In this document: piece after piece, positions 975-36,286 of the stretch
Layout of the letters: every line of letters starts with the position of its first letter
Numbering within the stretch: the stretch's first letter is position 1
Source of the DNA: a virus
Taxonomy: Duplodnaviria; Caudoviricetes
DNA length: 64,000 nucleotides
Strand: one strand, 5' to 3'
Virus record (IMG/VR): IMGVR_UViG_3300029305_003192
The notes under the pieces: model-generated
The model's database searches: none
What the model saw: only the letters and a program-made list of their open reading frames with translations
What the model was told of the DNA's origin: nothing
Position numbers and translations under genes: made by a program

Positions 975-3101
975 TTAGAATCTATCGAATCTATCCTTGC
1001 GGTCAAGAGTTGGATGGTCATCAGGCAGAACGTCTGCAAGATTTGTAGCAAAGAGTGGGTCGATAGATGACGGCTCTGTCTTTGTATAGAATCTTGGGTC
1101 GAGTAACTGCTTTCTGAGATTTGTCTGACGCATGGAGTCGATAGGCGATGCTGAATTAAACAGTGAGTCATTAATAGACAAAATCTGATAATCATCATGG
1201 TCTCCAGTAGGTCCGAAGTCCGGGAAGGAGTATATATCAGAACGCTTTCTGATAAGACCACGGATAATCATTTCGTCATGTACTGCATCGATGCGGATAT
1301 CAGATTCAAACTTATTAGCAAGCATATTCTGACACAGCTCATCGATAGTAGTATTTGCGGTAGCTGCTTTAGTATTGATAAGTGCCTTGATACGTGCAGT
1401 AGAGTCAATACTGTCTTCAGATGAAACTGATACGTTGAAGATACTATCGGTTGCATCAATATCGTCAAATGCCACGAGTAACTGCTTTGTGCTCTTAGAA
1501 CGCTTAATGAGAGCCTTCAGTGAGTCTGAGAAGTACAGCTTAATTTCATGGTCAGGTACGACGTTGTAGATAACATTAGAACGTGCATCCACTACCTTAT
1601 ATTCTGTACAGTAGTACTGTACATTGTCATCAGAATCTTCTTCCTTGAAGATTTTATCGATAAGGAGATACTGGTCCTGGTCAGTGCTAGTATCGTCCTT
1701 GAGAACGATATCAGATGAGATGAATTCAAAGTCGCGATTGAATTCCTCGTTGAATGCGATGGACTCGGAGTTGGTCTGGTTAATATGCTTTGACTTCAGA
1801 GTACGCTGCTTCAATGGCTCCGTCTCAACGATACCCGCATAAGCACCAGCAGATGCAAGGTTCTGGTTATTTGAGAAGAGTTTACCGTAGCAGTACATAC
1901 AAACCATTCCATTATCAGAGTTACATGTACATGGACTTCTGAACTGAAGAGTTCTTCCGATGAGGTGCTGGTCCTTAAATCTGTCAACACACTTCATCTT
2001 ATTTCCATCCTGGTCGTCGTAATAATAACGGCCATTAAGTGCTGTTAACCACTGCTGGTCAATGATGGTGTACTGAAGCGTTCTTGTAGAGTCGCACATC
2101 TCATAGTCTGTTCGGAGAAGGACATGTGCAGCACTGTTAGCAACACGTTTAGCATATGTGCCTGGGTCCTTCATGTTAATCTTAGAGTCGATTGTAGCCT
2201 TACGAGCAGCCTGAGCATCAATAAGGAAGTCAGCCGGAGTAATCATACCATCAACGAAAATGTTGTGATTAATCATATATGGAATTACGTGACCGTCAAG
2301 GTCAGGCTTAAATCCAACGCCGACCATAACTTCCTGGAACTGACCCATAGACATAATCTTACCTGCCTTAAAGATAGGTGCCAGGTCGCAATCACTGTTA
2401 CGGATAATATCAGCAAGTTCATTGGTACGCTCTTTAAAGAATGCCTCAATTTCACTTGGCTGCCAATCCGGATTTGGTTTCTCTGTCATAATCTCCACAA
2501 TACGTGGATGTTTCTCTGCAGTCTTGCAGATGTTATATACGGAAAGTCCGCCACCTGCAATAATTGAGATATACTTAGCAACTGCAGTTATATTAAAGAT
2601 GATTTCATCGATGATTGCTGACATTGTATCTGAGTCAACCTCAATCTGTCTTACATATTTCTCATCAATGAAGTCATTGATAGCCTCGATAGGTTTATCG
2701 ATAAAGTTATATATGTAAGATTCGTCCATGATGTCCACAGAGTCTGTAGCAGCAAATGCATACCACAGAATCATGTTGGATAAGAAGTGTCTCATCTGAA
2801 GAGAATATGGCTTGGTCTTATCGGACTTACGAATCTTAAAGTGAATAATTCTTGTGCGGACTTCTTCATATTCGAAGCCCCACTTACATAAATCCCACAG
2901 GTTCTGGTATACTACGGACCAAGTGGTTTTATTCTGAAGAATCTCCTCGAGGTATAACATCTTATGAGGACCATAAAGTTCCATCAGCTCCTCGAATGGA
3001 AGAGCCGGTGGACCACTGTAGTTTATCTTCTGCAGAGCTTTCTTCTCGGATTTGCTCAGCGTGCTGGTAGCAACATGCTGAGCGAGCTTTGATTTTCCCA
3101 T
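975..3101 (-). CDS. phage multisubunit RNA polymerase beta' subunit, C-terminal part (probably non-virion RNAP)
   Basis: Bridge helix AARKATIDSKINMKDPGTYAKRV (cf. [23 protein letters not shown]), Zn site RSPCTC..GMVCMYCYG, trigger loop EPLKQRTLKSKH (cf. EPGTQLTMRTFH); lacks NADFDGD, so beta' is split. Confidence 0.9.
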   Translation of the reverse strand: MGKSKLAQHVATSTLSKSEKKALQKINYSGPPALPFEELMELYGPHKMLYLEEILQNKTTWSVVYQNLWDLCKWGFEYEEVRTRIIHFKIRKSDKTKPYSLQMRHFLSNMILWYAFAATDSVDIMDESYIYNFIDKPIEAINDFIDEKYVRQIEVDSDTMSAIIDEIIFNITAVAKYISIIAGGGLSVYNICKTAEKHPRIVEIMTEKPNPDWQPSEIEAFFKERTNELADIIRNSDCDLAPIFKAGKIMSMGQFQEVMVGVGFKPDLDGHVIPYMINHNIFVDGMITPADFLIDAQAARKATIDSKINMKDPGTYAKRVANSAAHVLLRTDYEMCDSTRTLQYTIIDQQWLTALNGRYYYDDQDGNKMKCVDRFKDQHLIGRTLQFRSPCTCNSDNGMVCMYCYGKLFSNNQNLASAGAYAGIVETEPLKQRTLKSKHINQTNSESIAFNEEFNRDFEFISSDIVLKDDTSTDQDQYLLIDKIFKEEDSDDNVQYYCTEYKVVDARSNVIYNVVPDHEIKLYFSDSLKALIKRSKSTKQLLVAFDDIDATDSIFNVSVSSEDSIDSTARIKALINTKAATANTTIDELCQNMLANKFESDIRIDAVHDEMIIRGLIRKRSDIYSFPDFGPTGDHDDYQILSINDSLFNSASPIDSMRQTNLRKQLLDPRFYTKTEPSSIDPLFATNLADVLPDDHPTLDRKDRFDRF

Positions 3102-7228: not shown

Positions 7229-9412
7229 TTATCGAATTTTAGATAGAAAATTATCGATATCCTCTCGTCGGATAATTGGCATTCGGTGCTTTCGAGCCTT
7301 CTGTAACTTCTCAGTGTTAGCGCTTGTATTTGCCGCAATCAGTGCTATACAGTCCTTATTGAAGCCAGATATCAATTCATATCCTCGTTTATTGAGCTCT
7401 GCACGAATCTCTGCTTTGGCATCTTTACCAAAGTCTGTACATGCAAAATTACCGATGAACTTCTGAGACTCTACGATGGTAAACTCATCGAGCAGTCCCA
7501 TTATCTCTTCACTGTTATCGGCGAAGAATGATGCAACTTTTCTTGCACTGGATGGTCCTATGCTCTTAGCATCCATCATTCTGTCCATGATGGTGAATGA
7601 CCAGCCCTTCTTAAGGAGTCTTATCAATTCCTCGATAGATGTGATGTTTGCAATCTTCTTAGCAGTCTCAAGGCCAACACCAGGAATATTGAGTGCGTTG
7701 ATAAATTCAGCCTCTGTTATAGAACGCTTATACAAGCTCTCAATCTCACTAATGAATGCATCGATGTTATTATTACCCCATCCTGATACACGGGACATCT
7801 TCTCACGGAAAGCTTCTCTATCATATTTGATAGCTTTAATGAGGTCAAGTGGACTTGAAATGTGTGTATTGTCATATACATCTCCAAACGATTCATCGGA
7901 GAATCCTTCCATACCCAGACGGGTAGCAAATTCAATAAGTCTTCCTACAACTCTGCGAGAACAGTCCTTATTCGGACATACGCAGTAGTTACTTCCGACT
8001 TTATTACCGTGCTCATCGATGGTAGATGTATGATTAAGTGTGGAACCACAGTATGGACATTGCATACTGAATTTAAGTCTCTCACCGCCGTTATATTTAA
8101 CGACTCTCTTAAGCATTGGGATTACGTCACCAGATGATTCGATTTCAACCTCATCACCGATATGGATATCAAATGACATAGCCTTACTCATAGTTGAAAG
8201 AGATACATCCGTTACTACGGTCTCATTAACGATAGTCTCTGTAATCTTAAGCATCGGTGTGGCTCTACCACCTCTACCGATACTCATATAACCGTATTCC
8301 ACTATACCAGTACCGAGCTTGTCGTTAATCTTAAAGGCATATGAGCAGCTCATGGCATCGTCTCTGAATCCTTTATATGAGAACATCGGAGCTCCTGTTA
8401 TGTCACCACGATAACTGTCATAATCTGACTCTGGAGTAACATATGCTACAACACCATCAGTTCTGAATGGATAGTCAGTACTATGGTATTTATCCATAAG
8501 CTCTCTTGTTAATGAGAGTAACTCCTTTCGGAACTCTCTTTCGTCTGTCTTTGACATATAATAACCTATAGACTTCTTATGTGGTCCAAGGCATCTGTCG
8601 GTACCAATGAAGCTATAGAAATTACCATCCTTGATAACCAGTGGCATTATTGTGATATGGTTACCATACTTGATATTCTTAGGGCTTCCTACAATACCGC
8701 TTATTGCGGAACGTGGATTTGCATATATGCCCTTAAGATGCTCGAAGTCTTCTCTACTACAAAGAACTTCACACTTAATGGCACCTTTCTCAATGTGTCG
8801 TGCAAGCTTCTCGATCTCGTCAAAGTTCTTAGCTTGCTTGAGGAGCGGGAGGATGTTCTGACCTTTCGCTCCATCTTTTCTTGTAACTGCATTGACAACC
8901 CAGCCATCGACAACGTTGATACATGCAGATACACCATCGTACTTCGGAGCAAATATCACTCTAGCGTCTCCGAACATATCGATGAATTTATAGAGGTTAT
9001 CAATAAACTCTCCAATATCATGAGTCTTATTGATAGAACCCACCATATCAGGGTTCATGTGTGGAATTATATCCCACTTGGATTCCGTCTCCATACCAAC
9101 TGGCTCAAAGTCTGTAGTTGTAATCATTGGATGACCATATCTCATATAGATCTTCATGAGTTCATCATACTTAGAGTCGGATACCAGCAGATATGAATTC
9201 TTGCTGTATGTGTATACAATCATACACAGATTAATAAACTTCTTGAGAACTTGGTCACTAATGATATAACCATTCTCGTCCATATCAGTCACGTAGTCGA
9301 CATAACGGTCGAACTCAAACTGATAATTTGCCAATGCGGCGACTTCAATGTTACCATTCTTCAAGTCTTTGTAAATGGTATTGATTCTTTTCTCAACTGA
9401 ATTAATTGCCAT
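7229..9412 (-). CDS. ligA: NAD-dependent DNA ligase
   Basis: KYDG adenylation motif, TRKDG, DGVV, AFK, OB fold (SGDVIP), C4 Zn finger CPYC..C..C, HhH ALNIPGVG, C-terminal BRCT-like region; probable start MAINSV (9412) after GAAAGGA. Confidence 0.93.
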   Translation of the reverse strand: MAINSVEKRINTIYKDLKNGNIEVAALANYQFEFDRYVDYVTDMDENGYIISDQVLKKFINLCMIVYTYSKNSYLLVSDSKYDELMKIYMRYGHPMITTTDFEPVGMETESKWDIIPHMNPDMVGSINKTHDIGEFIDNLYKFIDMFGDARVIFAPKYDGVSACINVVDGWVVNAVTRKDGAKGQNILPLLKQAKNFDEIEKLARHIEKGAIKCEVLCSREDFEHLKGIYANPRSAISGIVGSPKNIKYGNHITIMPLVIKDGNFYSFIGTDRCLGPHKKSIGYYMSKTDEREFRKELLSLTRELMDKYHSTDYPFRTDGVVAYVTPESDYDSYRGDITGAPMFSYKGFRDDAMSCSYAFKINDKLGTGIVEYGYMSIGRGGRATPMLKITETIVNETVVTDVSLSTMSKAMSFDIHIGDEVEIESSGDVIPMLKRVVKYNGGERLKFSMQCPYCGSTLNHTSTIDEHGNKVGSNYCVCPNKDCSRRVVGRLIEFATRLGMEGFSDESFGDVYDNTHISSPLDLIKAIKYDREAFREKMSRVSGWGNNNIDAFISEIESLYKRSITEAEFINALNIPGVGLETAKKIANITSIEELIRLLKKGWSFTIMDRMMDAKSIGPSSARKVASFFADNSEEIMGLLDEFTIVESQKFIGNFACTDFGKDAKAEIRAELNKRGYELISGFNKDCIALIAANTSANTEKLQKARKHRMPIIRREDIDNFLSKIR

Positions 9413-9454
9413 CGTATCATTCCTTTCATAATATTGTGGTATTTGCTCATAACG

Positions 9455-9464
9455 ATGATATATA
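9455..9464 (-). promoter_or_regulatory. putative early promoter TATATATCAT (ligase)
   Basis: Exact motif ~45 nt upstream of the ligase start. Confidence 0.7.
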
Positions 9465-9543
9465 TTTTTCAATATTTACGTAAAGGTTTTTACGGTGATA
9501 AATTAATACAAAATTTCATAAAACTTAGAGGAGGAAATAAGTT

Positions 9544-12426: not shown

Positions 12427-15400
12427 TTATGGGACCATGTAACCGCCAGTTAATTCGATATCTTCAGAGTCTTCCCAGTCTGCATTATATGTCAAACTAG
12501 AATGTTCCAAGGCTTCGATATTCTGGGTCTTAATAATATCATCGAATATTTCCTTCGTACGAATCTCTGCCTTGAGTTTATCGTAATTCTTAATCATACC
12601 ATTACATACGAAGAATGTACCGCGTAAATCTGCAAGACTACCTGGGCTATACAGGCTTGGGTCTCTATCGAGAATACCCTGCTTACCAGAGTTAATTACG
12701 AGAGCAACAAACTGAGAGCAGAAGAGATTCTCTGGATCAGTCTTAGGGTTATTGAAGATATAGTTGATGAGTCCTCCTACATTGTAACGGTACTTCTCAC
12801 GATGAGCGAAGATGTTATCAACTGTATTCTTCACTGCCTTTATCTGAGACTCCTCAAAGAACATGACGTGGAGTGCATACTCAGTGCTTGGAGGATATGA
12901 GAAATGATTTGCCTTTGGATTGAACGATTCAATACCTGCACCGAATCCTCGGGCATTAATGATACCTTTCTTGACAACCTTATTACCAAACGTGAAGCAC
13001 TCACCCATACTTGGGTCAAATGAGATGAACGAATGTGACCAGTTCTCCTTAGTAAAACTACGAATAACTGTACCAAGTGGTGAGATATTCTTCATAAGTC
13101 CTATATAAAGCGGATAATATCTCTTGCCCTGATAGGACTGCCATAAGCGGTCGTTAAACTTAATGGGTTCATATACAAACTCGGGCATTGCTGACTCCTT
13201 TGCTACTATTCCAGAATAGGGCACGTTTGGAGCCCAGCCTGTCATTACCGAATCCTCGGCAGGTTTATAATATTTACCGAATCGATTATTCTCGCCAATA
13301 TTGATATCAGTAATACCGAACTCGGTAATCTTAGCATTGATTGCATCTGCAAGTTCCTTCTCTCTGTCCTCATTGACATAATTAAAGAACTTGATAGCAA
13401 GCATAACATGCTCAGCATCTGGCATTGGGTACTTCTTTATATCAGGAAGTCCAAAATCAGTACGTTCCTTAGAAGTTAATGCAGACTCAAGTGCAAGAAG
13501 ATATCCTTTATCGTTATCATGGGTTGCATATTTAGCATTAATTCCCTTGTCAGTTATAGGCTTAAATCCATATTTAGTATACATCTTATGTGCTACTTCG
13601 TTATCACTGTCGACTCTAAGAGCATTGCCCTTCATAGTCTTAACCGCGAAATTGAGTAACTGACTGCCAAGACCATAACCCTGGTACTCTGGACGAATTT
13701 CGAGGGTTGAAATCCAGTTATAATCTGGGTCTTTAAAGCTCACACAAGCATCACCAACGAGTTTATCGCCATCTAACCAGATACGGGAATCATGGGTTTC
13801 ATCTGCCGGCCATGCGTGCTTAAGCATTTTAGATTCTGCTTCATATTTCTTAAGCAGTGCCGGTGTCATCTTAAGACACGTGAAATCGGACAACGACTTC
13901 TTACCTTTAGATGTATAATCTTTAGATATGTTAGATTTCATTGATGATTCAGTAGCCGGCTGTGGTACATGCTCAAATACACTAGCTTCTTCAACTTCGT
14001 CCGCATGGAAGATATCCCATATTACAGATGATGCTGATGATTCAAGTGCTGTGGACTTCTCAGCATTGGTACGCATAAACTTTCTTAACTTATCAAGATT
14101 GTGATCATCCTGTGCATACCACGCCTTCATCTCGGCACGCTGTTGTTCGTCGTAGACATTGGCCTCGCGAATAGTCATACGTTTTAACGAAGTATGTTTT
14201 GACGTACCCTTAATAATCATAGGCTTGTCCTTGAGATATTCATGATCTATTCTCGCTGAGATATGAATGCCTTCCCATATAAATAACAACTCAGGTCTCT
14301 TGGTACAGTAATCAAGAAGCCAATTAAATGCACTATTGAACTTTGCGCGTTTTGTATCAAAAGAATCATCTTTCTCATAAACGCATCCTGTTTCAGCATA
14401 CATCTTACGGAATATCTGACTGACATTTTTCTGATATCCATTAGGATTCCATTTCTCATCCTGACCAAATTCACGTGTTATACGGTCGAGTTCAATATAG
14501 AACGCATCGTGAGATTTCGAAAGTTCTTCACCAAGGGTGGATTTACCAGAACCGGAAAGACCTGTGATATAGAGAATATTCTGACCTTTCTTTCTCTGCC
14601 ACTTATCGATATTGAAGTACTCGTCCTTATGATTGATAAATGCTGACTCAGTAGCAGGAGCCATACGATACATTACTTCAGTCCTACCCATATACTCATC
14701 AGTAATCTGAAGCCCATATTTCTCATACATACCAATGGCCGGAGTATTTGATTTGCGTACTTCAAGATACTTACCTCCGAGATTATTAATGGCGTAATCC
14801 AAAAGCATCGTTCCATATCCCTTACGACGTTCATTTTCATCAACCACAAGAAGTTCAATACAACCCGTATCCTGTGATATACTGAAGAAGCCTACGGGAT
14901 ATGATTTACCATCATAAAGACCGTAGCATGATATTTTGCTGAATGCCTTTGGGTTGGCTTTAAATCGTAAAAGATATGCGTCTCGCGTCATGCTAAGTGT
15001 TGATGAATCAGGAATCTTTTCGATGTCGGATTTGGTCATTGGTTTTATCTTAATACTACCAGATGCCGCTTCGGTAGCCGGAAGAAGTTCCATCTCAACT
15101 CGCTTAACCATATCATCATCTATAGCCAGCTTGCACTCAAGAAGGAATCTATAGAAGTCCTGATATTCCTTATTAACCACCTTGAAGTAGTTAACCTTAG
15201 GATTCTTAATCATTACTTCGTCCTTAACCTTTTCGGTCTTTCTGTCATATTCGACAATATGTGTGGCATGACTCTCGTTATCACCGCCATCCTTAATCTC
15301 TATCTCAAGATTGAGGTCTGGGATATAGAAGTCAGGAATATAGAAGTGCTGCTTACCTTCATACATGTATGTGTAAGTATGAGGGGATGGTCCCATAATA

Positions 15401-15855
15401 TCCTTCGACTTGAGTCCGAGTACGAACTCACATGTCATAAGGAAATCCTTCTCATAAGATGAGAGGTATAATACAGAACCACCATCTCTGAATTTATACG
15501 GCTTGCTCTTAGAAGCAAGCATTTTTCTCTGCTGGTCTGGGTCATTTAAGAGGTGTGGTACACCATATTTATCGACCATTCTCTTCTTTGCCTCAGCACA
15601 GTATTTCTTTTTGCAATTAGGGTCCGAGCAGTACCTGGAGTATTTACCAGTAGTCTCATTCCATTCAGTTGGTTTATGACACTGCACACATGAACCATGT
15701 GTCTTTCCAGTGTCCACATAATAAAAATAACGAGCAACTGAATATCCATCCGGAATTGTATCCGGATGGAGTCTTTCAATATGCTCACCCCAGCCTGAGA
15801 GAGATTTGAATCTCATACCACAGACAGGGCATTTATATACACTAACCTTTCTCAT
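12427..15855 (-). CDS. multidomain virion polyprotein: Zn-finger/TnsA-like (T4 gp4-like) nuclease, GNAT, P-loop kinase, GNAT, small helical domain, permuted papain-like (NlpC/P60, YiiX-like) domain
   Basis: CPVC..H..H; YIPDFYIPDLNLEIEIKD (PD-ExK); ERRKGYGTMLL and EYQGYGLGSQLL acetyl-CoA motifs; ITGLSGSGKST; KYPMPDAEHV; WSHS...YRYN...FCSQFVA. Confidence 0.8.
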   Translation of the reverse strand: MRKVSVYKCPVCGMRFKSLSGWGEHIERLHPDTIPDGYSVARYFYYVDTGKTHGSCVQCHKPTEWNETTGKYSRYCSDPNCKKKYCAEAKKRMVDKYGVPHLLNDPDQQRKMLASKSKPYKFRDGGSVLYLSSYEKDFLMTCEFVLGLKSKDIMGPSPHTYTYMYEGKQHFYIPDFYIPDLNLEIEIKDGGDNESHATHIVEYDRKTEKVKDEVMIKNPKVNYFKVVNKEYQDFYRFLLECKLAIDDDMVKRVEMELLPATEAASGSIKIKPMTKSDIEKIPDSSTLSMTRDAYLLRFKANPKAFSKISCYGLYDGKSYPVGFFSISQDTGCIELLVVDENERRKGYGTMLLDYAINNLGGKYLEVRKSNTPAIGMYEKYGLQITDEYMGRTEVMYRMAPATESAFINHKDEYFNIDKWQRKKGQNILYITGLSGSGKSTLGEELSKSHDAFYIELDRITREFGQDEKWNPNGYQKNVSQIFRKMYAETGCVYEKDDSFDTKRAKFNSAFNWLLDYCTKRPELLFIWEGIHISARIDHEYLKDKPMIIKGTSKHTSLKRMTIREANVYDEQQRAEMKAWYAQDDHNLDKLRKFMRTNAEKSTALESSASSVIWDIFHADEVEEASVFEHVPQPATESSMKSNISKDYTSKGKKSLSDFTCLKMTPALLKKYEAESKMLKHAWPADETHDSRIWLDGDKLVGDACVSFKDPDYNWISTLEIRPEYQGYGLGSQLLNFAVKTMKGNALRVDSDNEVAHKMYTKYGFKPITDKGINAKYATHDNDKGYLLALESALTSKERTDFGLPDIKKYPMPDAEHVMLAIKFFNYVNEDREKELADAINAKITEFGITDINIGENNRFGKYYKPAEDSVMTGWAPNVPYSGIVAKESAMPEFVYEPIKFNDRLWQSYQGKRYYPLYIGLMKNISPLGTVIRSFTKENWSHSFISFDPSMGECFTFGNKVVKKGIINARGFGAGIESFNPKANHFSYPPSTEYALHVMFFEESQIKAVKNTVDNIFAHREKYRYNVGGLINYIFNNPKTDPENLFCSQFVALVINSGKQGILDRDPSLYSPGSLADLRGTFFVCNGMIKNYDKLKAEIRTKEIFDDIIKTQNIEALEHSSLTYNADWEDSEDIELTGGYMVP

Positions 15856-15875: not shown

Positions 15876-17189
15876 TTAGAATTTTGCATTGATACGTCCG
15901 AGCTTAGGTGCAGCAGCTGCATTAACATCGAGATAATCGCTCTTCTTATAATTTGTCTTGGCAACAGTATTTGACACCGTCTTAGCCGCATTGGCTATAC
16001 CCCTACCAGCATTCTGGGCTTTACGTTTAACGCCCTTTCTGAATCCGAGCTCAAGTTTATCCTCATCATTAGTAAGATTACGGTCAACTGCATGCTCCTT
16101 AAACTTTCTAAGAAGTTTCTTATCCTCAACATCACTCGCTCCACCAAGGCACGCCTTAACTACCATACGGCAATTAACAAGCTGCTCCGTATATGATGAT
16201 ACAAGGAAGTTTACCATAGTAGAGAAGAAGTTGAGACTCTTAGTCATATTGAGAATCGATGTTGCGGAACCCTTCTCTGCAGTCTGCTGGGAGTTATTAG
16301 TAATGCTCTCAATATCACTCTTCATCTTATCCTGATACATCTTGAGTCTGTCGATGAAGTGATGACAGTTCTGTATACGGGTATTGAAGTTCATGATGAA
16401 CTTAGAGCAGTTATTATACAGCTGCTGGTCAAGCACCATCTCAACACTACCCTCACCTTTAGGAGCATTCTCGTTGTTATCAACAGATGCTGATATCTGC
16501 ATACCTCGATGCTTCTGTTGAATGGCTTTGATTAGATGAGAGAACGTTTCGACTTTACCAAATTCAGAACCAAGAACTCTAGCCACTTCCTTCGCAGTGT
16601 TAGCATGTACTGGCTTCTTCTTATATTCGTCCATCTTGGTATTATATTCCTCAGCGGACATCTGACCATTAATGGACTTACGATAGAGACCGATACAAGC
16701 AGTGAGGTCGTTGGTATATTCATTATATACCCTATCAAGTGCCTGCACCGCCTTATTAAGAATATCAAAGTTGTATCTTCGATTCTTCTTAACCAAGTCG
16801 AATCGGGGTTTATACTTCTTCTGAAGCTCCTTGATTTCTCTGTCATATGCAAGCTTTGACTGAGAAATATACTGAAGCTTACCCTTGATATTAGTGATGA
16901 CCTTCATTACCATATCCTGGAGGAACTGGAATATCTTCTTTATCTTCTCGATAAGATTGAAGTCTTTCTTCTCATTAGCTTCTCCAGATGCAGTGGGTTT
17001 AGCTTCATTCTTATTATCAGTAGTATTTGGTGCAGTGGTAGATGTATTGGTCGTAGATGCATTAGACGGGGTACCAGTCTGACCAGCTTCTTCCATTGCA
17101 GGACTCATTGGAATATCGTTAATGATTGCGTCCAATAAGTCATTATTGAAACGGTAGCTTTCAATAGCTTCCGATAATATAGCATTCAT
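15876..17189 (-). CDS. putative internal head/virion protein with cleavable N-terminal propeptide
   Basis: N-terminal AIES/PAMEE motifs followed by a Thr/Asn-rich linker and helical body; preceded by AACA-N6-TA. Confidence 0.55.
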   Translation of the reverse strand: MNAILSEAIESYRFNNDLLDAIINDIPMSPAMEEAGQTGTPSNASTTNTSTTAPNTTDNKNEAKPTASGEANEKKDFNLIEKIKKIFQFLQDMVMKVITNIKGKLQYISQSKLAYDREIKELQKKYKPRFDLVKKNRRYNFDILNKAVQALDRVYNEYTNDLTACIGLYRKSINGQMSAEEYNTKMDEYKKKPVHANTAKEVARVLGSEFGKVETFSHLIKAIQQKHRGMQISASVDNNENAPKGEGSVEMVLDQQLYNNCSKFIMNFNTRIQNCHHFIDRLKMYQDKMKSDIESITNNSQQTAEKGSATSILNMTKSLNFFSTMVNFLVSSYTEQLVNCRMVVKACLGGASDVEDKKLLRKFKEHAVDRNLTNDEDKLELGFRKGVKRKAQNAGRGIANAAKTVSNTVAKTNYKKSDYLDVNAAAAPKLGRINAKF

Positions 17190-17217: not shown

Positions 17218-17229
17218 TAATGGTTTGTT
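17218..17229 (-). promoter_or_regulatory. putative late promoter AACA-N6-TA
   Basis: AACAaaccatTA upstream of the virion protein/polyprotein operon. Confidence 0.55.
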
Positions 17230-17279
17230 ACGGGGAATAAATATGAGGGTTACCCATTGTAGGGTAACCCTCATTACTA

Positions 17280-17819
17280 TTATAAACGAGTTTCTATCAT
17301 AAGCTGTATGCTATATGTACTATTACCAGGATGAACCAGTATGTCAACTGGACGATGGTCTGGGTCGGCTTCTTTACCTTTATACAGATTAGCATTTATG
17401 ATAAGGAGTCTTTCGAACTTACTCAGATCAACTCTAGTATCATTCTTCATACGGTTGACGTACTCAATGACCGCTCTCGAGCCGAAATGTAGAACCGTAT
17501 CAACATATGCGTCTCTACCATCACGGTAATCATCATAATCAATTTCTCGACCAGAAGCTTTAGCTTTGCTATCAACCCTGCGATTATGATCGATGATTGC
17601 AGTCAGATGATGTAGTAAATATACGAGCACTGCATGTGAGTTGATATTTTCAGGATTACCTATAAATTCTGGAAGACAAATGTCCGTACCTTCGGATATA
17701 TCTGAGCTATTAACGAAGAAGTCGGAATAGCTATAGATATCTTTCGTGATGATTCTATGCTTAATAGCATCATCATTATCAGTATCTGATGAAATAGTAA
17801 ATCTTATATCGTCTGTCAT
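17280..17819 (-). CDS. hypothetical protein (179 aa)
   Basis: Start overlaps the stop of the RNAP beta-C gene (translational coupling). Confidence 0.7.
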   Translation of the reverse strand: MTDDIRFTISSDTDNDDAIKHRIITKDIYSYSDFFVNSSDISEGTDICLPEFIGNPENINSHAVLVYLLHHLTAIIDHNRRVDSKAKASGREIDYDDYRDGRDAYVDTVLHFGSRAVIEYVNRMKNDTRVDLSKFERLLIINANLYKGKEADPDHRPVDILVHPGNSTYSIQLMIETRL

Positions 17820-20227
17820 TACTTCTTATCCTCCTTCTCCGACACTGTAATCATATCCTGATACTGTCCATAGATAGCATCGCGAACACAGCGTACGATG
17901 TATGATGGAATCTCAAGGAACTTGAAATCTTCAGAGTTCTTGATATCCTTAAAGATAGCTGGGTCACCTGGTGTTGCACCGTCTCTGAGAGCACGGGTGT
18001 ATCTGTCAACCAGGAATACATAGTATTTACGGTTAATCGGCGTATCGATAAAGGTATAGCCATACACCTTTATGAACTGACGGATATTCGCAATTTCATC
18101 TTCTCTTAATGAAAGATTGGTCACGAATTTATATCCGATACCCATAACCTTAAGACGAGCCTTGAGTGCAAGTACGTTATCGTTAACGTAGTTACTCTTA
18201 ATCTTAAATGAACCAATATTCATTGGGTCACCTGTAGCACTGATAATCTTACCAAGTGCCTTACGTCCAAGTACAGATGTACGTGTCCATACATTATGCT
18301 CTGCGAGTACTACTGGAGCAATCTGTGTCTGAAGGTCAGCGATTTCTGAAATACATACAGGTGTATTACTATTACATATACGATTCTCCTTCTTATCAGA
18401 TGACTTAGTAGGTAAACCCGCCTTAGATGTAGTACCAGTTGAACGTGCAGAGAAGTTCTTGTTGGATGTCTGCTTGAGCAGGAACATGTACTTGTATCCG
18501 ACAACCATCTTCTTCATGAGAGGTTTCTTCATTCCGAAGATGTTTACATAGAGCTGGTATGGCTCTACAATATCGGCATAGATCTTATAGAGTTTCTGGA
18601 ACGCGTCGAATCTGAGCTGAGCTGCAGGAGACTTAATGAAATAGTATCCATCTCTCTCAACGGATTCGACAATCTTACGCTTGATTTCCTTATCTTCAAC
18701 GTATGTGTCACCATCAACTCTTACCCTGAACTGGTGTAAGAATACCTTACACTGTTCGGCGTTGATATAGCCAATGAATCTGAGAATTTCGTCCATCTTA
18801 GTGTCAACATTATCAAGTGTAGTAATCCACTTACGGTGACATTCGGCAAGGAAGTTGAGGTCAACTTCATACAACTGGTCGGTATTCTCACGACGGAACG
18901 CACCTGTAGCATTGAGCACAATATCAAGTGGTGTACCGTCTTCCATGTAGTACATACTTTCATCATCAACGATGTCAATATGTGTGTTATTGAGATTGCT
19001 TACATCGATACCGAGGGACTCGACCAGAAGACTTGTGAATGTATCGAATTCTTCCTTGTCGATTTCCTCGTTAGGACCTCCATCACCGATAACCTTGGAA
19101 ACTACACCTTTATCACCATAACGTCCTACGAACTTACAACCTTCCTTAGGGAAGCAGGTTGTTTTTGTCTTGAAGACCAATACGATGTTAGAGAAGGGCT
19201 TGTCTCTCATTTTCCATTTCTTCGTTGGGTCATTATATCTATCGAAACGCTTACGCTGGAATGTGACATTATCTGTGTAGCGAGAACCACTCTGCTTAAT
19301 CTTAGTAGCAGCTTCGAACACCCTATCAGCGTATGTGCAGCAATATTCATAGTATTTAATGAGCTGTGCGTTATAAATTGTGTCTGGGATGGGTTCATCC
19401 CCATTATAGTACACATCGATGTCATATACTACTGTGCCGAGCTTGGTACAGTATTTATTGTCAGTATTGCAGATATCATGAACGTTCTTCTCACGGAAGT
19501 CATATGTTGCATACATGGAGTTATATCTTCTGGTAGCACAAAGAATCTCAACGTCATTGATTACTTCACCTACGTCAGGGAAGGATTTATCTCCATGAAT
19601 AAAGAGGAGAATATCGTTGTCGTTGATAGATACTGTAGTCTGTCCTACTTCAACATATCCAAAGTCCTTAAGATATCCGCGACGGATTTTGATACCGTCT
19701 TCATATGTCGCTACGTCGTTACTGTATGCGACTAAAGCATTCTTACCAAGACGATAGTTCATATGTTCATCATATGATGTAGACTTGAAGAGAATTGGGT
19801 CGGTTGTCTTATCGCCAACATTGAGGCTATCCATGCCTTCAGTATTATACTGATAGCCAAAGCTCTCTGCAATGTATCTAGCCTGCTGCTTCTCAATCAT
19901 ATCATATGTATCAGTCTCAGCGTTGTAGAGAATGAGCATATATACATTATCGTCTCCGAATTTTTGAATTTTGTCAACTACTTCCCATTCGCCTTTGAGT
20001 TCTTTATAGGCGTGAGAGTATTTACCAAATGCACGTTCATGTCCTGTCTGAACACGTGCGATGTCTGGATTAAGAAGTGTCACGTACTGCTTCTGGTTCT
20101 GAGTAGCCATGAAGAGACGTGAGCCGTTGGAGCCACCTGGGTACAAGATAGAACTTGGACCATAGCAATGCTCCATATTACTTATGCGGTGATTAACTTC
20201 CTCGTATACGCTTTTATCATATCCCAT
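17819..20227 (-). CDS. phage RNA polymerase beta subunit, C-terminal part (probably non-virion RNAP)
   Basis: SRLFMATQNQKQ, YEDGI, GCKFVGRYGDKGVVS (cf. GDKMAGRHGNKGV), DGTPLDIVLNATGAFRREN, GYKYMFLLKQTSNKNFSARSTG. Confidence 0.92.
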   Translation of the reverse strand: MGYDKSVYEEVNHRISNMEHCYGPSSILYPGGSNGSRLFMATQNQKQYVTLLNPDIARVQTGHERAFGKYSHAYKELKGEWEVVDKIQKFGDDNVYMLILYNAETDTYDMIEKQQARYIAESFGYQYNTEGMDSLNVGDKTTDPILFKSTSYDEHMNYRLGKNALVAYSNDVATYEDGIKIRRGYLKDFGYVEVGQTTVSINDNDILLFIHGDKSFPDVGEVINDVEILCATRRYNSMYATYDFREKNVHDICNTDNKYCTKLGTVVYDIDVYYNGDEPIPDTIYNAQLIKYYEYCCTYADRVFEAATKIKQSGSRYTDNVTFQRKRFDRYNDPTKKWKMRDKPFSNIVLVFKTKTTCFPKEGCKFVGRYGDKGVVSKVIGDGGPNEEIDKEEFDTFTSLLVESLGIDVSNLNNTHIDIVDDESMYYMEDGTPLDIVLNATGAFRRENTDQLYEVDLNFLAECHRKWITTLDNVDTKMDEILRFIGYINAEQCKVFLHQFRVRVDGDTYVEDKEIKRKIVESVERDGYYFIKSPAAQLRFDAFQKLYKIYADIVEPYQLYVNIFGMKKPLMKKMVVGYKYMFLLKQTSNKNFSARSTGTTSKAGLPTKSSDKKENRICNSNTPVCISEIADLQTQIAPVVLAEHNVWTRTSVLGRKALGKIISATGDPMNIGSFKIKSNYVNDNVLALKARLKVMGIGYKFVTNLSLREDEIANIRQFIKVYGYTFIDTPINRKYYVFLVDRYTRALRDGATPGDPAIFKDIKNSEDFKFLEIPSYIVRCVRDAIYGQYQDMITVSEKEDKK

Positions 20228-27337: not shown

Positions 27338-28537
27338 TTAAAGACTGGATGTAAGGAAGTCTGGAAGTTCTTCAACTTCTTCATTTCCTACATTGTTTGC
27401 AGAACCCAGAATTTTGTCAACCTGTGGGTTCTTTGCATATGAAGCAAATGCCTTTGCATTATCAGCAATGCTGTAGCTTCTTTCCTTAATGGAATCCTCA
27501 TATGCATTGACTCTCTCGATACAACGATTGAGTCTGTCGTATGGCATACTCTGACCTGATACCAACATACCAAACTTAGCAGTTGGCTGGTCAGTGATTC
27601 CATAGTTTACAAAGATTTCGAACGGCTCACCGAGAGCATTGAAGAGTTCGGAATAGTCTGCCTTCTTAACTGGGTCGTCGATATTATCATCGACTTCGAG
27701 GCAGATGCCGAAATACTTCGAAAGCTTGTCTCTCTGTGGGTTTACTACAGATGTCTTTGCAAGACGAGTTGTAATAATCTTCTGAATACCATTATCAGAG
27801 ACCTCACTCATCTTGATACCTTCTGCAGAGAATGCTGTAATCATACCCTTACAGGAAATGATTGTGAGCATATTACGCTCATCAATCATACCATACTTTG
27901 TCATGATTGCATAATCGCCGCGAACTGTCTTAACGGCTCCTACGATATCTGCCGCTACCATGGTGTAAGATTCCTCAATATTATACTCAGTATACTTCTC
28001 GAGGTCGAATACCATGTATGGAATGTTCTTGCTCTTGTTGATAAGTTCAACTTCAGAGAAGAACTGAATAGCATTCTGCTGGCTATTGATAGACTCGGAG
28101 AGTCTTGGAAGGATACCAATCAGAATGATATTTTTACTAGGGTACTTGCTGGAAAGCTGGAATGCGATAGTTGGTGCAATACCAGAACCAGTACCGCCAG
28201 CGGTGGATGCAATCACGAAGATTACATCCTTATCGCTTACAAAGTCAACGAATTCGGGACCACTCATAAGCTTCTGAGACTGGTCCCATTCGCTATAGAG
28301 CTTCTTAGCGATTTCTCTGTTACGACCAGCACCTCTACCAAGAGATGCTGAGTCTTCGATGATGTAGCTTCTTACACCCTGAGGAACCACGGTATTGTCC
28401 AGGTCCCTTGCGGATGAGTTAATAAGAATGGTTTCTACACCATTCTTGTGAAGTTCGACGCCGGCCTGACCGCCGCCGTTACCAATACAGATTGCACCGA
28501 CTTTAAGTGCAACCTGATTAATTCTCTCCGTTGTCAT
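27338..28537 (-). CDS. tubulin/FtsZ-family GTPase (PhuZ/TubZ-like)
   Basis: ICIGNGGGQAG, GRGAGRNREIAK, signature AGGTGSG, ILPRLSE, IDERNM T7-like loop. Confidence 0.9.
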   Translation of the reverse strand: MTTERINQVALKVGAICIGNGGGQAGVELHKNGVETILINSSARDLDNTVVPQGVRSYIIEDSASLGRGAGRNREIAKKLYSEWDQSQKLMSGPEFVDFVSDKDVIFVIASTAGGTGSGIAPTIAFQLSSKYPSKNIILIGILPRLSESINSQQNAIQFFSEVELINKSKNIPYMVFDLEKYTEYNIEESYTMVAADIVGAVKTVRGDYAIMTKYGMIDERNMLTIISCKGMITAFSAEGIKMSEVSDNGIQKIITTRLAKTSVVNPQRDKLSKYFGICLEVDDNIDDPVKKADYSELFNALGEPFEIFVNYGITDQPTAKFGMLVSGQSMPYDRLNRCIERVNAYEDSIKERSYSIADNAKAFASYAKNPQVDKILGSANNVGNEEVEELPDFLTSSL

Positions 28538-30345: not shown

Positions 30346-31077
30346 TTACTTAGCTTTCTTTCTTGGAGATGCAAGCAGTTTACTACCACTAATGATGTTA
30401 GTCTTCATACCTGCAGAGGTATAATACACATCAAGGGTATTGACTGCCGTCTTATCCTCAGGCAATGATTCGAGTTCACCAAGATAACATACGCCATCTG
30501 TAGCGATTCTGTTATATGCCTGGTTCTTAGCCATCTCATCATCGGCACGGAATCCGAGGAATTCCTTAAGAGTATTATTAGCACCATATGCACTGAGGGC
30601 ATATGTCTCAACATTAGAGATTCTCGCATTCTTATCCTGACCAGATACCTGACCAGTTATAGAGCTTCTCTTATTGATACTTGTGGAACCGCTGTTCTTA
30701 TGATGAACCGTCTGTGGAAGACGTTTCTCGTGTATATAACCAACCGGAACTTTATCCGGTGTAACAACTACTGGTCCGTCTTTACCATTCAGATGTGGAA
30801 TACATACCCTTTCATAAAGAGGGATACCAAAGAGGTCTGCGGCCTTCTGAATATATTCAAGTTTCGCCGGTCGTTCATATTCGTCGATCTCCCAGTAGAA
30901 GTTGTGCTCAAATGCTTCGTCGAGCCAAAGTACCCACTTATCGAATTCCTTATCGGATACCTTGTCCCACTTTTCATGATAGAATTTAGTATTAGTACCT
31001 GTAGGGTCTAATGCATTGAAGAGTTTATCCAGGTCCGCCATGAAATCGGCTCTGGCCTTATTTGAGTATGTGGGCAT
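30346..31077 (-). CDS. second RNA polymerase beta C-terminal fragment (probable virion RNAP subunit)
   Basis: VPVGYIHEKRLPQ..RSSITGQVSG..RISNVETYALSAYGANNTLKEFLGFRADD matches the RpoB C-terminus ([39 protein letters not shown]). Confidence 0.85.
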   Translation of the reverse strand: MPTYSNKARADFMADLDKLFNALDPTGTNTKFYHEKWDKVSDKEFDKWVLWLDEAFEHNFYWEIDEYERPAKLEYIQKAADLFGIPLYERVCIPHLNGKDGPVVVTPDKVPVGYIHEKRLPQTVHHKNSGSTSINKRSSITGQVSGQDKNARISNVETYALSAYGANNTLKEFLGFRADDEMAKNQAYNRIATDGVCYLGELESLPEDKTAVNTLDVYYTSAGMKTNIISGSKLLASPRKKAK

Positions 31078-33733: not shown

Positions 33734-36274
33734 TTATTTATCAATGCAGGCATTGATGATTAAATCTCCATTTGGTACTGGTACAAGCTTCTTGCCCTTA
33801 GCCATTCTGGAGAGTGTTGGAATGTTGGCTACATCATATGCAACCTCACCATTTGTCTGGGTGATAACGTAGAGTTTCTCATCATCATTACAGCTCTGTG
33901 CGAAGATTACTTCATCACCATCATCGACCTTGATGAGGTAAGAGTCATCCTTACGCTTAGTAGCTTCCTGAAGATACTCAGTCTCAACCTTCTTAGCGTA
34001 TCCCTTAGCTGTGAGAATAACGATATACTTATCATTATTCTCTGGGAATATCTGTCGAAGTCCAACACATCTGTCACCTTCGTCAGTTGCAATGAACTGA
34101 AGGCCAATTGTGTCCTTAAGTGCTGTAACAGGGAGTTCGGAATCCTTAACCACAATATACTTACCCTTAGCTGTATATAAGAGCAGCTTGGATGTATCTG
34201 GAGTTTCCGGATTTGATACTACCATAGTAACTGCACAAATTCTGTCATTATCTCTGAGCTTAGCTGCTCTTGCAGCATATCTCTCAGCAACATCTGTAGA
34301 GTCTCCCTGATATACATAATCAGAGAACTTGGTAGCCTTGACCATACCTTTCTCGGACAATGTTGTGAGATAGAGATTGTCATAGGATACCTTAGTTTTC
34401 TTCGCTTCCTTCTTAGTGGCATGTGCTTCATGACTGATAGCGAATCTTCCCTTAATATTACCTTCGAGCTTTGTAACATTGTAGATTGTCTCACCGATAG
34501 ATGAGTAGATAGTATTTGGAATCTCATGAACTGGCATGATTGTATACTTACCATAGTCATCTACAAGGATTACTGAGTCGAGGTTGTTTGCGAAGAATCT
34601 ACCAAGCGGTCTGTCGCCCTGAGCGAGTGTACCGATAGGATTCTTTGTGTGGTATTTGTCAGGTGTCTTAGGAACCTTCTTGATATAACCCTGGAGAGTA
34701 TTGACGATAATGTGCTCGGAGTTCATGATAACCTCATCCTTGTTAACCTGGATGATAGGTGAACGTCTTTCCACAGGTCCATACTTTCTAAGGTCTTCGA
34801 GTTCCTTAAGGATAACCTTATCAATCTTCTTTGGAGAGTATGCGATTTCTGCAATCTCATCAAACTTCTCCTGAAGCTTCTTTCTGTCAGTGATGTACTT
34901 CTCATGAGCATCTGCAGTGAATGCTGAGAGCGGCATACCAATAACAATCTTTGCCTGGTGAGATGACATACCATATTCAGACATAAGTGCATGAGCAAGT
35001 TTCTCAGCAGGTGTCTTTCTGATAATAGTGATTGTCTTCTCGAGATTCTTGCCTTCTGTAAGCTCAATCATGATGTCCTTTGTATCAATATCGGAGCGGA
35101 GCTTATTGAGGCTGTGGTTGTAGAGTGAACGCTTATAGAGTCTTCTCTGGTCAATCCATGCAAGCACAAGTGTCTTGAGTGAGCATGGAACGATGTCTGT
35201 GTCACCTACGATAACCTTAAGGCTGATAGAGAGTGTCTTCTCAAGGTCTGTAAGTCTGAAGAGGTCCGCTCTAACTCTTCTTGGGTCAAGTGCCTTGTCG
35301 AGCTTAACCACCAGCTTGGGTTCAACGAATGTGGAACCATCTGGGTTGAGATAAGACTCAGACTCATTTGCAATATGCTTAAAGTTGATAATCTTCTGCT
35401 TAGCAAGTTCGATTATCTTTGGCATAAGCTTTGCAAAGTCAACTGTATATGGAATATTAGTAATTACCAATCTCCATTCTGTATTAGTTTCTTCGATATC
35501 GATATTAGCTCTCATTCTGAGTCTACCGATACCTGTCTTACAAATATCCTCAATACCCTTAACGTCATCCACAATACAGCAACCTGTAGGGAGGTCTGGG
35601 TAAATGATGATATCTGATGCAGTTGGGTCTTTCAGATATGTCTTACATAACTCAATGATATCACTGATGTGATATGGTGGAATACATCCAAGATGTCCCC
35701 AACCAATACCACTTGTACCATTGACAAGGATATTTGGGAACTTGGATGGAAGATATTCTGGTTCTTCCAGACCAGTTACGAATGATACCATTCCAACAGC
35801 AGCTGTGCTGAAGTCACTGAAGAAACACTCATAACCATATTTGGAAAGGAATGCCTCAGTGTATCGATAAGCACCATACGCGTCTGCTGCGTCTGCTGAA
35901 CCAAAGTTAGATGGTCCAGATATATAAGGTACCGCAGTCTTCCAGTCCTGTGCCATACCAACCATTGTACCATACACGGAGATATCTCCGTGGTTGTGGT
36001 ACTTCATGGCAGTAGTTACCAGTGCAGAACACTTTGTCTTCTTTCCTGGTAATGCACCTTCCTTATAGAAGGCGAAGAGGATTCTTCTTTCAACTGGTGT
36101 AAGAGAATCCATAATGTTAACCAACTGACGGGCATAGTTCAAGTTAGCTCCGAAGATGGTCATTGACTCCGTATTGAAGTCTGAGATATCCATATCGACG
36201 ATATTGGACTCGTCGATAAAGTCGTTCTCGGTAATATTGTCCCATACTTTGGACGTTCCCTTTTTCTTGGCCAT
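33734..36274 (-). CDS. gyrA: type IIA topoisomerase subunit A (GyrA-like, with C-terminal pinwheel repeats)
   Basis: DSLTPVERRIL, YHNHGD, catalytic AYRYTE, FPNILVNGTSGIGWG, PDLPTG; C-terminal blades such as T.KGYAKK and SRMAKGKKL. Confidence 0.92.
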   Translation of the reverse strand: MAKKKGTSKVWDNITENDFIDESNIVDMDISDFNTESMTIFGANLNYARQLVNIMDSLTPVERRILFAFYKEGALPGKKTKCSALVTTAMKYHNHGDISVYGTMVGMAQDWKTAVPYISGPSNFGSADAADAYGAYRYTEAFLSKYGYECFFSDFSTAAVGMVSFVTGLEEPEYLPSKFPNILVNGTSGIGWGHLGCIPPYHISDIIELCKTYLKDPTASDIIIYPDLPTGCCIVDDVKGIEDICKTGIGRLRMRANIDIEETNTEWRLVITNIPYTVDFAKLMPKIIELAKQKIINFKHIANESESYLNPDGSTFVEPKLVVKLDKALDPRRVRADLFRLTDLEKTLSISLKVIVGDTDIVPCSLKTLVLAWIDQRRLYKRSLYNHSLNKLRSDIDTKDIMIELTEGKNLEKTITIIRKTPAEKLAHALMSEYGMSSHQAKIVIGMPLSAFTADAHEKYITDRKKLQEKFDEIAEIAYSPKKIDKVILKELEDLRKYGPVERRSPIIQVNKDEVIMNSEHIIVNTLQGYIKKVPKTPDKYHTKNPIGTLAQGDRPLGRFFANNLDSVILVDDYGKYTIMPVHEIPNTIYSSIGETIYNVTKLEGNIKGRFAISHEAHATKKEAKKTKVSYDNLYLTTLSEKGMVKATKFSDYVYQGDSTDVAERYAARAAKLRDNDRICAVTMVVSNPETPDTSKLLLYTAKGKYIVVKDSELPVTALKDTIGLQFIATDEGDRCVGLRQIFPENNDKYIVILTAKGYAKKVETEYLQEATKRKDDSYLIKVDDGDEVIFAQSCNDDEKLYVITQTNGEVAYDVANIPTLSRMAKGKKLVPVPNGDLIINACIDK

Positions 36275-36286
36275 TTTAATCCCTCC

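Follow-up and report, generated by a model that had tools for sequence, protein, structure and literature searches.

Six unrelated enzyme domains and a protease motif at their joints in a late protein of an uncultured jumbo phage

Why a phage should join six unrelated enzyme domains in one polypeptide and place the same short motif at their joints is the question raised by an open reading frame in the window, the 64,000-nucleotide stretch of IMG/VR record IMGVR_UViG_3300029305_003192 analysed here. The encoded protein, P0001, is a late protein of an uncultured jumbo phage and was found in identical form in 24 contigs, the longest of about 239.6 kb. Domains were called with Pfam and PHROG profiles, and folds were assigned from AlphaFold2 models. 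Together with structure matches, these bore out the preliminary description of a six-domain protein of 1142 aa, with a Zn-finger/PD-(D/E)xK nuclease, a GNAT, a P-loop kinase-like module, a second GNAT, a DUF6582-like module and a YiiX-type permuted papain-like domain from the N to the C terminus (Table 1). We think it rather probable that P0001 is a late cargo polyprotein of an AR9/phiKZ-like jumbo phage, which is packaged, cut by the prohead protease and ejected with the DNA.

Table 1. Features of the P0001 gene and its upstream region (window positions; the slash follows the Glu after which cleavage is proposed)
Feature	Position	Strand	Basis or remark
P0001, whole ORF, 1142 aa	12427..15855	(-)	ORF translation
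Residues 1-259: C2H2 finger, second Cys4 ribbon and PD-(D/E)xK nuclease	15079..15855	(-)	phrog_15137, DUF7487
Joint 1, A260-T-E/A	15067..15078	(-)	motif; pLDDT<50 over 255-266
Residues 264-400: GNAT acetyltransferase 1, RimI/NAT-like fold	14656..15066	(-)	Pfam and structure match
Joint 2, A401-T-E/S	14644..14655	(-)	motif; pLDDT<50 over 403-407
Residues 405-602: P-loop kinase-like module	14050..14643	(-)	AAA_18/AAA_33 below cut-off; well folded in model
Joint 3 (A603-L-E/S), 27-aa disordered spacer and joint 4 (A634-T-E/S)	13945..14049	(-)	pLDDT<50 over 600-640, both models
Residues 638-787: GNAT acetyltransferase 2	13495..13944	(-)	Pfam; Foldseek and VIA matches to RimI, Naa50
Joint 5, A788-L-E/S, abuts last GNAT strand, without long linker	13483..13494	(-)	motif and model
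Residues 792-884: small DUF6582-like module (M3)	13204..13482	(-)	Pfam and model
Joint 6, A885-K-E/S	13192..13203	(-)	motif; pLDDT<50 over 866-893
Residues 889-1114: YiiX-type permuted papain-like (NlpC/P60-like) domain, His941 and Cys1047	12514..13191	(-)	structure match, alignment
Joint 7 (A1115-L-E/H) and conserved disordered acidic 24-aa tail	12430..12513	(-)	motif, model, alignment
P0002, 437 aa, upstream operon gene	15876..17189	(-)	A-I-E/S at 8-11, A-M-E at 30-32
AACA-N6-TA, late-promoter match	17218..17229	(-)	matches AR9 late-promoter consensus; ~30 nt before P0002 start
GC-rich hairpin and T-rich run, terminator of preceding gene	17245..17272	(-)	read from sequence; just upstream of promoter match

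The N-terminal domain opens with a C2H2 finger that is weakly matched in Pfam and PHROG (residues 6-30). The endonuclease family phrog_15137 covers residues 6-242 (E 3.9e-53), and DUF7487 is matched at 28.9 bits against a Pfam cut-off of 27. The nuclease residues are E135, D175 and E186-x-K188; across 41 sequences, D175, E186 and K188 show no variation and E135 almost none. Acetyltransf_1 matches the protein twice above the curated Pfam cut-off (E 2.3e-26, 92.8 bits; stretches ~313-400 and 679-766), and both GNAT copies align with RimI-type structures at Z 11.7-14.0 (for the first copy, 14.0 to 9mto_B and 13.9 to 5isv_A). The P-loop at residues 420-480 matched AAA_18/AAA_33 below both Pfam cut-offs, and comparison of this module with the PDB gave weak kinase matches only. 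Its similarity to the guanylate kinase encoded by an adjacent gene in phage DC4 does not extend beyond the P-loop.

DUF6582 was matched in module M3 at residues 799-832 (E 0.003). The tail of this module, from residue 869, copies the conserved N-terminal peptide of the phage's capsid protein; in two putative polyprotein/capsid pairs, no covariation of the peptide was seen. The C-terminal domain (903-1090) superimposes on YiiX 2if6_B (Z 13.0, rmsd 2.8, 144 aligned residues) and on the cysteine peptidase 3kw0_A (Z 12.5), with a collinear, weak match to the 3kw0 profile (E 0.041), and Pfam gave no match to residues 888-1142 at E <= 0.1. Among homologues, His941 is fully and Cys1047 almost fully conserved, in the permuted order of His before Cys. 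Plausible activities of these modules would be the acetylation of proteins or small molecules, phosphorylation and the hydrolysis of amides.

Seven motifs lie at the domain boundaries, A-x-E-[S/A] at residues 260, 401, 603, 634, 788 and 885 and A-L-E-H at residue 1115. The chance expectation is 0.58 motifs, and in 20,000 shuffles a count of six was never attained. The earlier observation that nearly every junction carries the motif holds position by position, the C-terminal A-L-E-H included. The AlphaFold2 models place the joints between folded domains: the motifs at 260, 401, 603, 634, 885 and 1115 are in, or at most two residues from, segments with pLDDT<50, and that at 788 directly follows the last strand of the second GNAT (pLDDT ~75). 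Since the codons differ from site to site, what the joints share is a peptide motif, and an origin as a DNA repeat can be ruled out. Internal translation starts at each module were likewise rejected, as only Met890 has a good Shine-Dalgarno sequence, which is located within the A-K-E-S codons. Not every A-x-E-S is a linker, because in 22 homologues one lies within the papain-like fold itself, at a conserved Glu column where P0001 has G-I-E-S; these occurrences were rejected as linkers. A location inside folded domains, which would have spoken against the preliminary description, applies to the papain-like fold of these homologues and not to the joints of P0001.

Homologues were compared in two regional alignments (A2 and A3), the full-length alignment including fragments (A1) being badly misaligned. 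The N-terminal domain is matched by 1258 representative clusters; among the best 150 representatives the nuclease is always N-terminal, and 145 carry C-terminal extensions. The cargo found among homologues comprises GNAT, kinase, transglutaminase-like, SNF2 helicase, NUDIX and metallophosphatase modules. When 120 homologues were cut in silico at the motif, modules of tight length were obtained that recur in different orders, and the ends of BLAST blocks cluster at the joint motifs. Strain variants sharing 87-98% identity differ in entire modules, which are gained or lost precisely at the motif, and A-x-E-S is the majority consensus in front of the kinase module (82 aligned sequences). The variable cargo with conserved linkers that had been predicted is therefore found, with the nuclease kept and the modules swapped at the motifs. 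A difference in cargo even between near-identical strains would be expected of effectors in an arms race. A megablast search of cultured phages gave no match, and tblastn of cultured relatives returned the standalone N-domain nuclease only and no polyprotein. One such standalone homologue, phiR1-37 g237, is annotated as a phage structural protein; the available part of the phage DC4 virion proteome tables, which has low sequence coverage, contains no sign of an N-domain homologue.

The same phage is represented by a 239,607-bp JGI contig with identical P0001, which was followed via exact-protein matches; in one direction the stretch followed is bounded by a 3396-aa gene. It encodes a prohead serine protease (L028:8940-9812) that matches S77 (30.1 bits, cut-off 27), S80 (26.7 bits, cut-off 23.4) and phrog_3014 (E 3.7e-12). 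Searches with PF03420 found no protease in the 59% complete genome G000 or in two complete relatives. Beyond its catalytic domain the protease carries A-S-E/S at 215 and A-M-E/S at 250, A-R-E/S occurs once in the capsid protein (phrog_20655), at residues 101-104, and the portal protein has three clustered motifs. The motif also marks scaffold-like proteins and a second polyprotein, whose 20-aa leader ends in A-T-E/G. At least three motifs occur in 10 of the 201 proteins, and these ten, which are head-module proteins and the two enzyme polyproteins, hold 57 of the 87 motifs of the proteome.

The prohead protease gp245 of phage SPN3US cuts at A-X-E, with a preference for Ser at P1', and also trims its own C-terminus (PMC10052503, PMC5694885). 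The resemblance of the joints to head-protease sites is thus well founded, given this published specificity, the S77/S80 protease of the phage and the motif shared by its head proteins. In phage G004 (25.7% GC), [ILV]-x-E-[SAG] takes the place of A-x-E as the motif enriched in the polyprotein homologue, in a head-module protein and in the portal, the reverse of what is seen in the phage of P0001; this covariation of joints and head proteins is drawn from two lineages only.

P0002, the upstream gene, belongs to no known family in Pfam or PHROG. Its stop codon lies 20 nt before the ATG of P0001, with an AGGAG site between them. The late-promoter motif is intergenic in 15 of its 38 occurrences in the contig scanned for it, though intergenic sequence makes up 7.4%. 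The late-type promoter and the operon with an AME-bearing protein, both claimed previously, are supported by the AR9-type match and by the A-M-E of P0002. The neighbours of the P0001 gene are RNA polymerase and replication genes, not the head module.

According to the explanation that we favour, P0001 would be expressed late, its constant Zn-finger/PD-(D/E)xK nuclease carrying a string of swappable enzyme modules. The entire chain would be built into the prohead, where the S77/S80 serine protease would cleave the A-x-E/S joints on the C-terminal side of Glu, and up to seven released pieces would remain in the head and exit with the DNA. Several observations count against this prohead route. 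P0001 lacks an N-terminal leader such as is found in the second polyprotein of the phage and in the internal proteins of T4; joint 5 is without a free linker; the gene lies outside the head module; and motif density is higher in homologues with the papain-like domain. Moreover, the dissection into several retained enzymes would exceed the measured cases, because all known cuts in SPN3US remove N-terminal propeptides.

An unlikely alternative is that the chain is never cut and acts as one multidomain enzyme in the late cytoplasm or the virion, A-x-E-S being a preferred junction kept by descent or by recombination tolerance. The N4 virion RNA polymerase, a packaged polyvalent protein, stays full length, and the folded strand next to joint 5 would suit such a chain. 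However, the peptide sequence of the motif is preserved although its codons differ, its P3 residue shifts together with that of the head proteins in another lineage, and within the phage it is confined to head proteins. Furthermore, the double sites, with a 27-aa spacer between two of them, would serve no obvious purpose if the chain stayed whole.

The conserved His/Cys pair raises the question of whether the C-terminal YiiX-type peptidase itself cuts the joints, in cis or in trans and before or after delivery, with the prohead protease uninvolved. Autoproteolysis of polyvalent proteins by their peptidase domains was predicted by Iyer et al. 2017 (PMC5512222), and the 61 of 120 homologues with the papain-like domain have 4.6 motifs per 1000 aa compared with 1.3 in those without it. 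This difference may, however, reflect relatedness only, and seven homologues without the domain (P0061, P0063, P0068, P0097, P0104, P0118 and P0120) still carry 4-6 motifs. The domain occurs in no other protein of the phage, yet the capsid and portal proteins, the protease tail, the scaffold-like proteins and the second polyprotein share the motif, and the joint motif equals the published prohead-protease site. Self-processing is for these reasons improbable.

The preliminary description had also likened the N-terminal domain to T4 gp4 and the TnsA fold. The conserved PD-(D/E)xK residues stand, with E, D and E-x-K in register between the two cores, whereas hhalign links the domain to gp4 itself only weakly (E 9.6e-4, probability 22%). 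Two additional zinc modules are present in P0001, and the Pfam search gave it no match to PF08722 (Tn7_TnsA-like_N); T4 gp4 belongs to this family, and AR9 g233 matches it below the cut-off (E 0.0057). That the domain is a head-completion nuclease acting in DNA packaging or head-tail joining like T4 gp4, and not a loading anchor, with the cargo being secondary, is doubtful: the standalone homologue in AR9 and Staphylococcus phage DC4 does adjoin, and is divergent from, a baseplate-wedge gene, like T4 genes 4/53, but the similarity is marginal and such a role leaves the joints and the cargo swapping unexplained, while being compatible with packaged and cleaved cargo.

Two known kinds of system are close to P0001, namely polyvalent proteins and T4 Alt with the internal proteins, and P0001 is a variant with putative prohead-protease sites at the joints. 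Polyvalent proteins combine 2-15 unrelated enzyme domains per polypeptide, and their packaging and injection have been predicted (Iyer, Burroughs, Anand, de Souza, Aravind 2017, PMC5512222). P0001 likewise has multiple unrelated domains in a phage context, its content varies among homologues, and its family draws on a shared domain pool (GNAT, NUDIX, SNF2 helicase, papain-like peptidases). In contrast, polyvalent proteins were proposed to be processed by their own peptidase domains, and the P0001 family has putative prohead-protease sites at the joints, a Zn-finger/PD-(D/E)xK nuclease as its anchor and AR9/phiKZ-like jumbo phages as its hosts. No description of the P0001 family or of DUF7487 was found among the searchable papers.

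T4 Alt and IPI-III are packaged in the head, trimmed after Glu by the prohead protease gp21 and injected, and Alt modifies host proteins. A similar fate as Glu-cut, injected enzyme cargo is proposed here for P0001 from its sequence. The T4 proteins are, however, single-domain with an N-terminal targeting peptide of ~10 residues, and P0001 has no such short peptide, its first site being at residue 260 and its zinc finger starting at residue 6. For the giant-phage prohead proteases (phiKZ gp175, 201phi2-1, SPN3US gp245; MEROPS S80), capsid and portal proteins are substrates, and several sites per protein are possible. The phage of P0001 shows the same A-X-E/Ser P1' pattern at the sequence level, but the sites in P0001 would separate complete enzyme domains, none of which is obviously disposable.

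Temperate phages have MuF-anchored polymorphic toxins, in which the N-terminal domain is constant and virion-associated and the C-terminal cargo varies. The MuF-like variation suggested earlier holds as an analogy only: the P0001 family shares the constant N-terminal domain and variable C-terminal cargo, but P0001 has no MuF domain (Pfam, PHROG), carries many cargo domains instead of one toxin, and has joints that resemble protease sites.

More tentatively, AR9/phiKZ-like jumbo phages may share a general system for loading cargo, exemplified by P0001, with a gp4-like nuclease as anchor, interchangeable cassettes, a capsid-like docking peptide, and maturation as activation; this possibility we rate below an even chance. 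The copied N-terminal peptide of the capsid protein would then dock the cargo to the capsid protein or present it to the protease, and capsid maturation would double as the activation of evolvable, strain-specific, injected host-modifying enzymes. Since the joints would be the prohead protease's own sites, a newly recombined cassette could be processed without further adaptation.

If P0001 is indeed dissected in the prohead, the role of the S80/S77 protease would go beyond the known removal of propeptides and include the dissection of polyproteins. Virion-delivered effectors could then be sought in metagenomes by a sequence rule, the occurrence at module borders of the motif of the lineage's own protease. 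The maturation of jumbo-phage heads would, furthermore, also free a programmable set of enzymes that enters the cell with the DNA, before phage gene expression.

P0001, the 1142-aa polyprotein, is encoded by a single ORF. The preliminary description had divided it into six unrelated domains, and all six are real as judged by Pfam and PHROG matches, conserved residues in the family alignment and a YiiX fold match. Residues 6-242 comprise a C2H2 finger and a DUF7487/endonuclease domain (Pfam, PHROGs; phrog_15137, E 3.9e-53). The family alignment made a second Cys4 ribbon visible in this N-domain, and D175, E186 and K188 of its PD-(D/E)xK site are invariant, E135 nearly so. Two GNATs and one P-loop module were matched by Pfam and PHROGs, and DUF6582 was matched weakly by Pfam at 799-832, within module M3 (residues 792-884). 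The C-terminal domain matches the fold of YiiX (2if6_B; Z 13.0, rmsd 2.8, 144 aligned) and of the cysteine peptidase 3kw0_A (Z 12.5), with an invariant His941 and a nearly invariant Cys1047 in permuted order.

Coordinates of features in the window, in the IMG/VR record of this phage (G000) and in the DNA loci read (L)
Feature	Coordinates	Strand
P0001 ORF	window 12427-15855	-
Capsid-like peptide of P0001	window about 13204-13251	-
Joint 6 codons	window 13192-13203	-
RNA polymerase beta-type fragments	window 975-3101, 17819-20227, 30346-31077	
NAD-dependent DNA ligase	window 7229-9472	
PhuZ-like tubulin	window 27338-28537	
Topoisomerase II, two subunits	window 33734-38683	
Two-domain endolysin	window 39443-41569	
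575-aa protein	G000:C1:30394-32121 = L002:12394-14121	-
phrog_6085 run and radical SAM enzyme	G000:C1:55190-66133 = L004:1190-12130	
Second polyprotein	L020:7214-9982	+
Acb2/Tad1-hairpin protein	L028:1286-1657	-
STIV_B116-like gene	L028:10001-10396	+
Capsid protein	L028:13323-15173	

In P0001, A-x-E-[S/A] occurs at residues 260, 401, 603, 634, 788 and 885 and A-L-E-H at 1115 (joints 1-7, proposed cut after Glu). The chance expectation from composition is 0.58 motifs, and six were reached in none of 20,000 shuffles. In two AlphaFold2 models built from family alignments (mean pLDDT 79 and 71), six of the seven sites lie in, or at most two residues from, segments with pLDDT below 50 (255-266, 403-407, 600-640, 866-893 and 1119-1142), and site 788 directly follows the last GNAT2 strand. 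The earlier view that the motifs separate domains holds for P0001 but not throughout the family, as 22 homologues have A-x-E-S inside the papain-like fold; there it is a conserved Glu column of the domain, where P0001 reads G-I-E-S. The codons of joint 6 (A-K-E-S) include AAGGAG, spaced six nt from the downstream in-frame Met890 ATG, a possible internal start that would give the papain-like domain alone.

A word-indexed search yielded 134 homologues, and searching exhaustively with the N-domain returned 1258 representative clusters, 663 of them at E <= 1e-30. Among the best 150 of these 1258, the N-domain was always N-terminal, the median length was 714 aa and only five proteins had 300 aa or fewer. 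The cargo of the homologues includes GNATs, P-loop kinases, transglutaminase-like domains, SNF2 helicases, NUDIX domains and metallophosphatases. Cutting 120 homologues at the motif resulted in modules whose lengths fall in narrow ranges and which recur in varied number and order, and BLAST block ends accumulate at the motifs of P0001. Entire modules distinguish variants with 87-98% identity over what they share: a transglutaminase-like module is inserted, or GNAT1 or GNAT2 is absent, and the junctions fall exactly at the motif. More distant members carry V/I/M-x-E-S at the same junction. These data bear out the suggestion that cargo may vary between phages; the N-domain is constant and modules are swapped at the motif.

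Prohead protease gp245 of SPN3US cleaves after A-X-E, with a preference for Ser at P1', and also shortens its own C-terminus; Glu also precedes the cut for the phiKZ, 201phi2-1 and T4 proteases (PMC10052503, PMC5694885). Twenty-four contigs encode a protein identical to P0001, the longest being ~239.6 kb. Given that the IMG/VR record around the window (141 kb, 41% GC, 59% complete) has no head module, head genes were read on a 239,607-bp JGI contig with identical P0001. Its 290-aa protease (Peptidase_S77 30.1 bits, Peptidase_S80 26.7 bits, both above cut-off; phrog_3014) carries A-S-E-S at 215 and A-M-E-S at 250, both past the catalytic domain. The major head protein (616 aa, phrog_20655) has A-R-E-S at 101-104 only, the portal three motifs, and scaffold-like neighbours four or five each. 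Of the 87 motifs in the 201 proteins read, 57 fall in the ten proteins with at least three, while tail, replication and transcription proteins have none or one each. In those ten, 67% of A-x-E occurrences are followed by S, A or G, versus 19% elsewhere. A second polyprotein of 922 aa, encoded outside the window, starts with an acidic 20-aa leader ending in A-T-E-G, contains a GNAT at 439-538 and has nine motifs, often doubled (A-K-E-S-x-A-M-E-G), which bound modules of 137-196 aa.

G004, a phage of a second lineage (228 kb, 25.7% GC), encodes a protease, capsid protein, portal and polyprotein homologous to those described here. Its polyprotein homologue, portal, one head-module protein and a few further proteins are enriched in [I/L/V]-x-E-[S/A/G] but not in A-x-E; the window's phage shows the reverse. 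Between these two lineages, joint and head-protein sites change together, which argues for a single trans-acting enzyme with a lineage-specific preference. That P0001 works as an uncut chain appears unlikely. Self-processing by the C-terminal cysteine hydrolase, the main rival, is in our estimate quite improbable: a papain-like domain is present in 61 of 120 homologues and motifs are more numerous in those, but homologues without it keep four to six, and the motif also occurs in proteins of this phage that lack such a domain. A DNA repeat as the origin of the motif is ruled out by the different codons at each site, which mark it as a peptide signal.

P0001 shares with the capsid protein a peptide that there directly follows A-R-E (residue 104) and hardly varies among 120 capsid homologues. 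Elsewhere among the 201 proteins it was found only at residues 869-880 of P0001, within the stretch 869-884 of the disordered linker that precedes joint 6, and homologues repeat it in the tail of module M3. The likeness consists of an 8-residue pattern within a 12-residue resemblance (two of 201 proteins). Judged from sequence, this peptide may serve in docking or recognition.

A standalone N-domain of ~240 aa exists in cultured relatives (AR9/PBS1 and Staphylococcus, Listeria and Yersinia jumbo phages), and its homologue g237 of phiR1-37 is annotated as a phage structural protein. The nuclease gene of AR9 and DC4 stands beside, and divergent from, a baseplate-wedge gene, similar to T4, in which gene 4 adjoins gene 53. 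T4 gp4 aligned weakly with the nuclease core (E 9.6e-4, probability 22%), with the catalytic residues in register; Tn7_TnsA-like_N includes T4 gp4, and AR9 g233 matches the same family below threshold. In Staphylococcus phage DC4, a guanylate kinase gene follows the standalone nuclease gene, which suggests that the nuclease-kinase fusion arose from genes adjacent in this way.

The proposed operon behind a late-type promoter, shared with another AME-bearing protein, was recovered. A 437-aa gene ends 20 nt before the polyprotein ATG, AGGAG lies in the gap, and the upstream protein has A-I-E-S at residues 8-11 and A-M-E at 30-32. The pair is preceded on its 5' side by a terminator hairpin followed by the consensus of AR9 late promoters, AACA-N6-TA (PMC5312081). 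On the 141-kb contig this consensus is about three-fold depleted (38 copies versus ~130 expected); 15 of the 38 are intergenic, in a contig with 7.4% intergenic sequence, and twelve stand 20-90 nt ahead of genes, among them genes for virion structural proteins. This distribution agrees with selection on an AR9-type late promoter. A match also precedes the gene of a 575-aa protein with 11 A-x-E-[SAG] motifs (0.44 expected) and no family match, which may be a scaffold or an internal protein of the head.

Based on its split multisubunit RNA polymerase, PhuZ-like tubulin, T4-type portal and chaperonin, the window's phage is an AR9/phiKZ-like jumbo phage. It also encodes a run of phrog_6085-matching proteins followed by a 653-aa radical SAM enzyme, and on the 239.6-kb contig a gene of 3396 aa that weakly matches Peptidase_C39_2 separates the head module from the portal region. 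A STIV_B116-like (AcrIII-1/DUF1874) gene between the protease and head genes, and the gene of a 123-aa Acb2/Tad1-hairpin protein adjoining the DNA polymerase, are putative anti-defence genes that would counter cyclic-nucleotide signalling.

Earlier publications cover both polyvalent proteins and prohead-protease motifs (prohead motif: PMC10052503, PMC5694885). Our literature search retrieved no paper combining them, no description of the P0001 family and no mention of DUF7487. The in silico evidence for P0001 as a probable protease-jointed polyprotein is strong.
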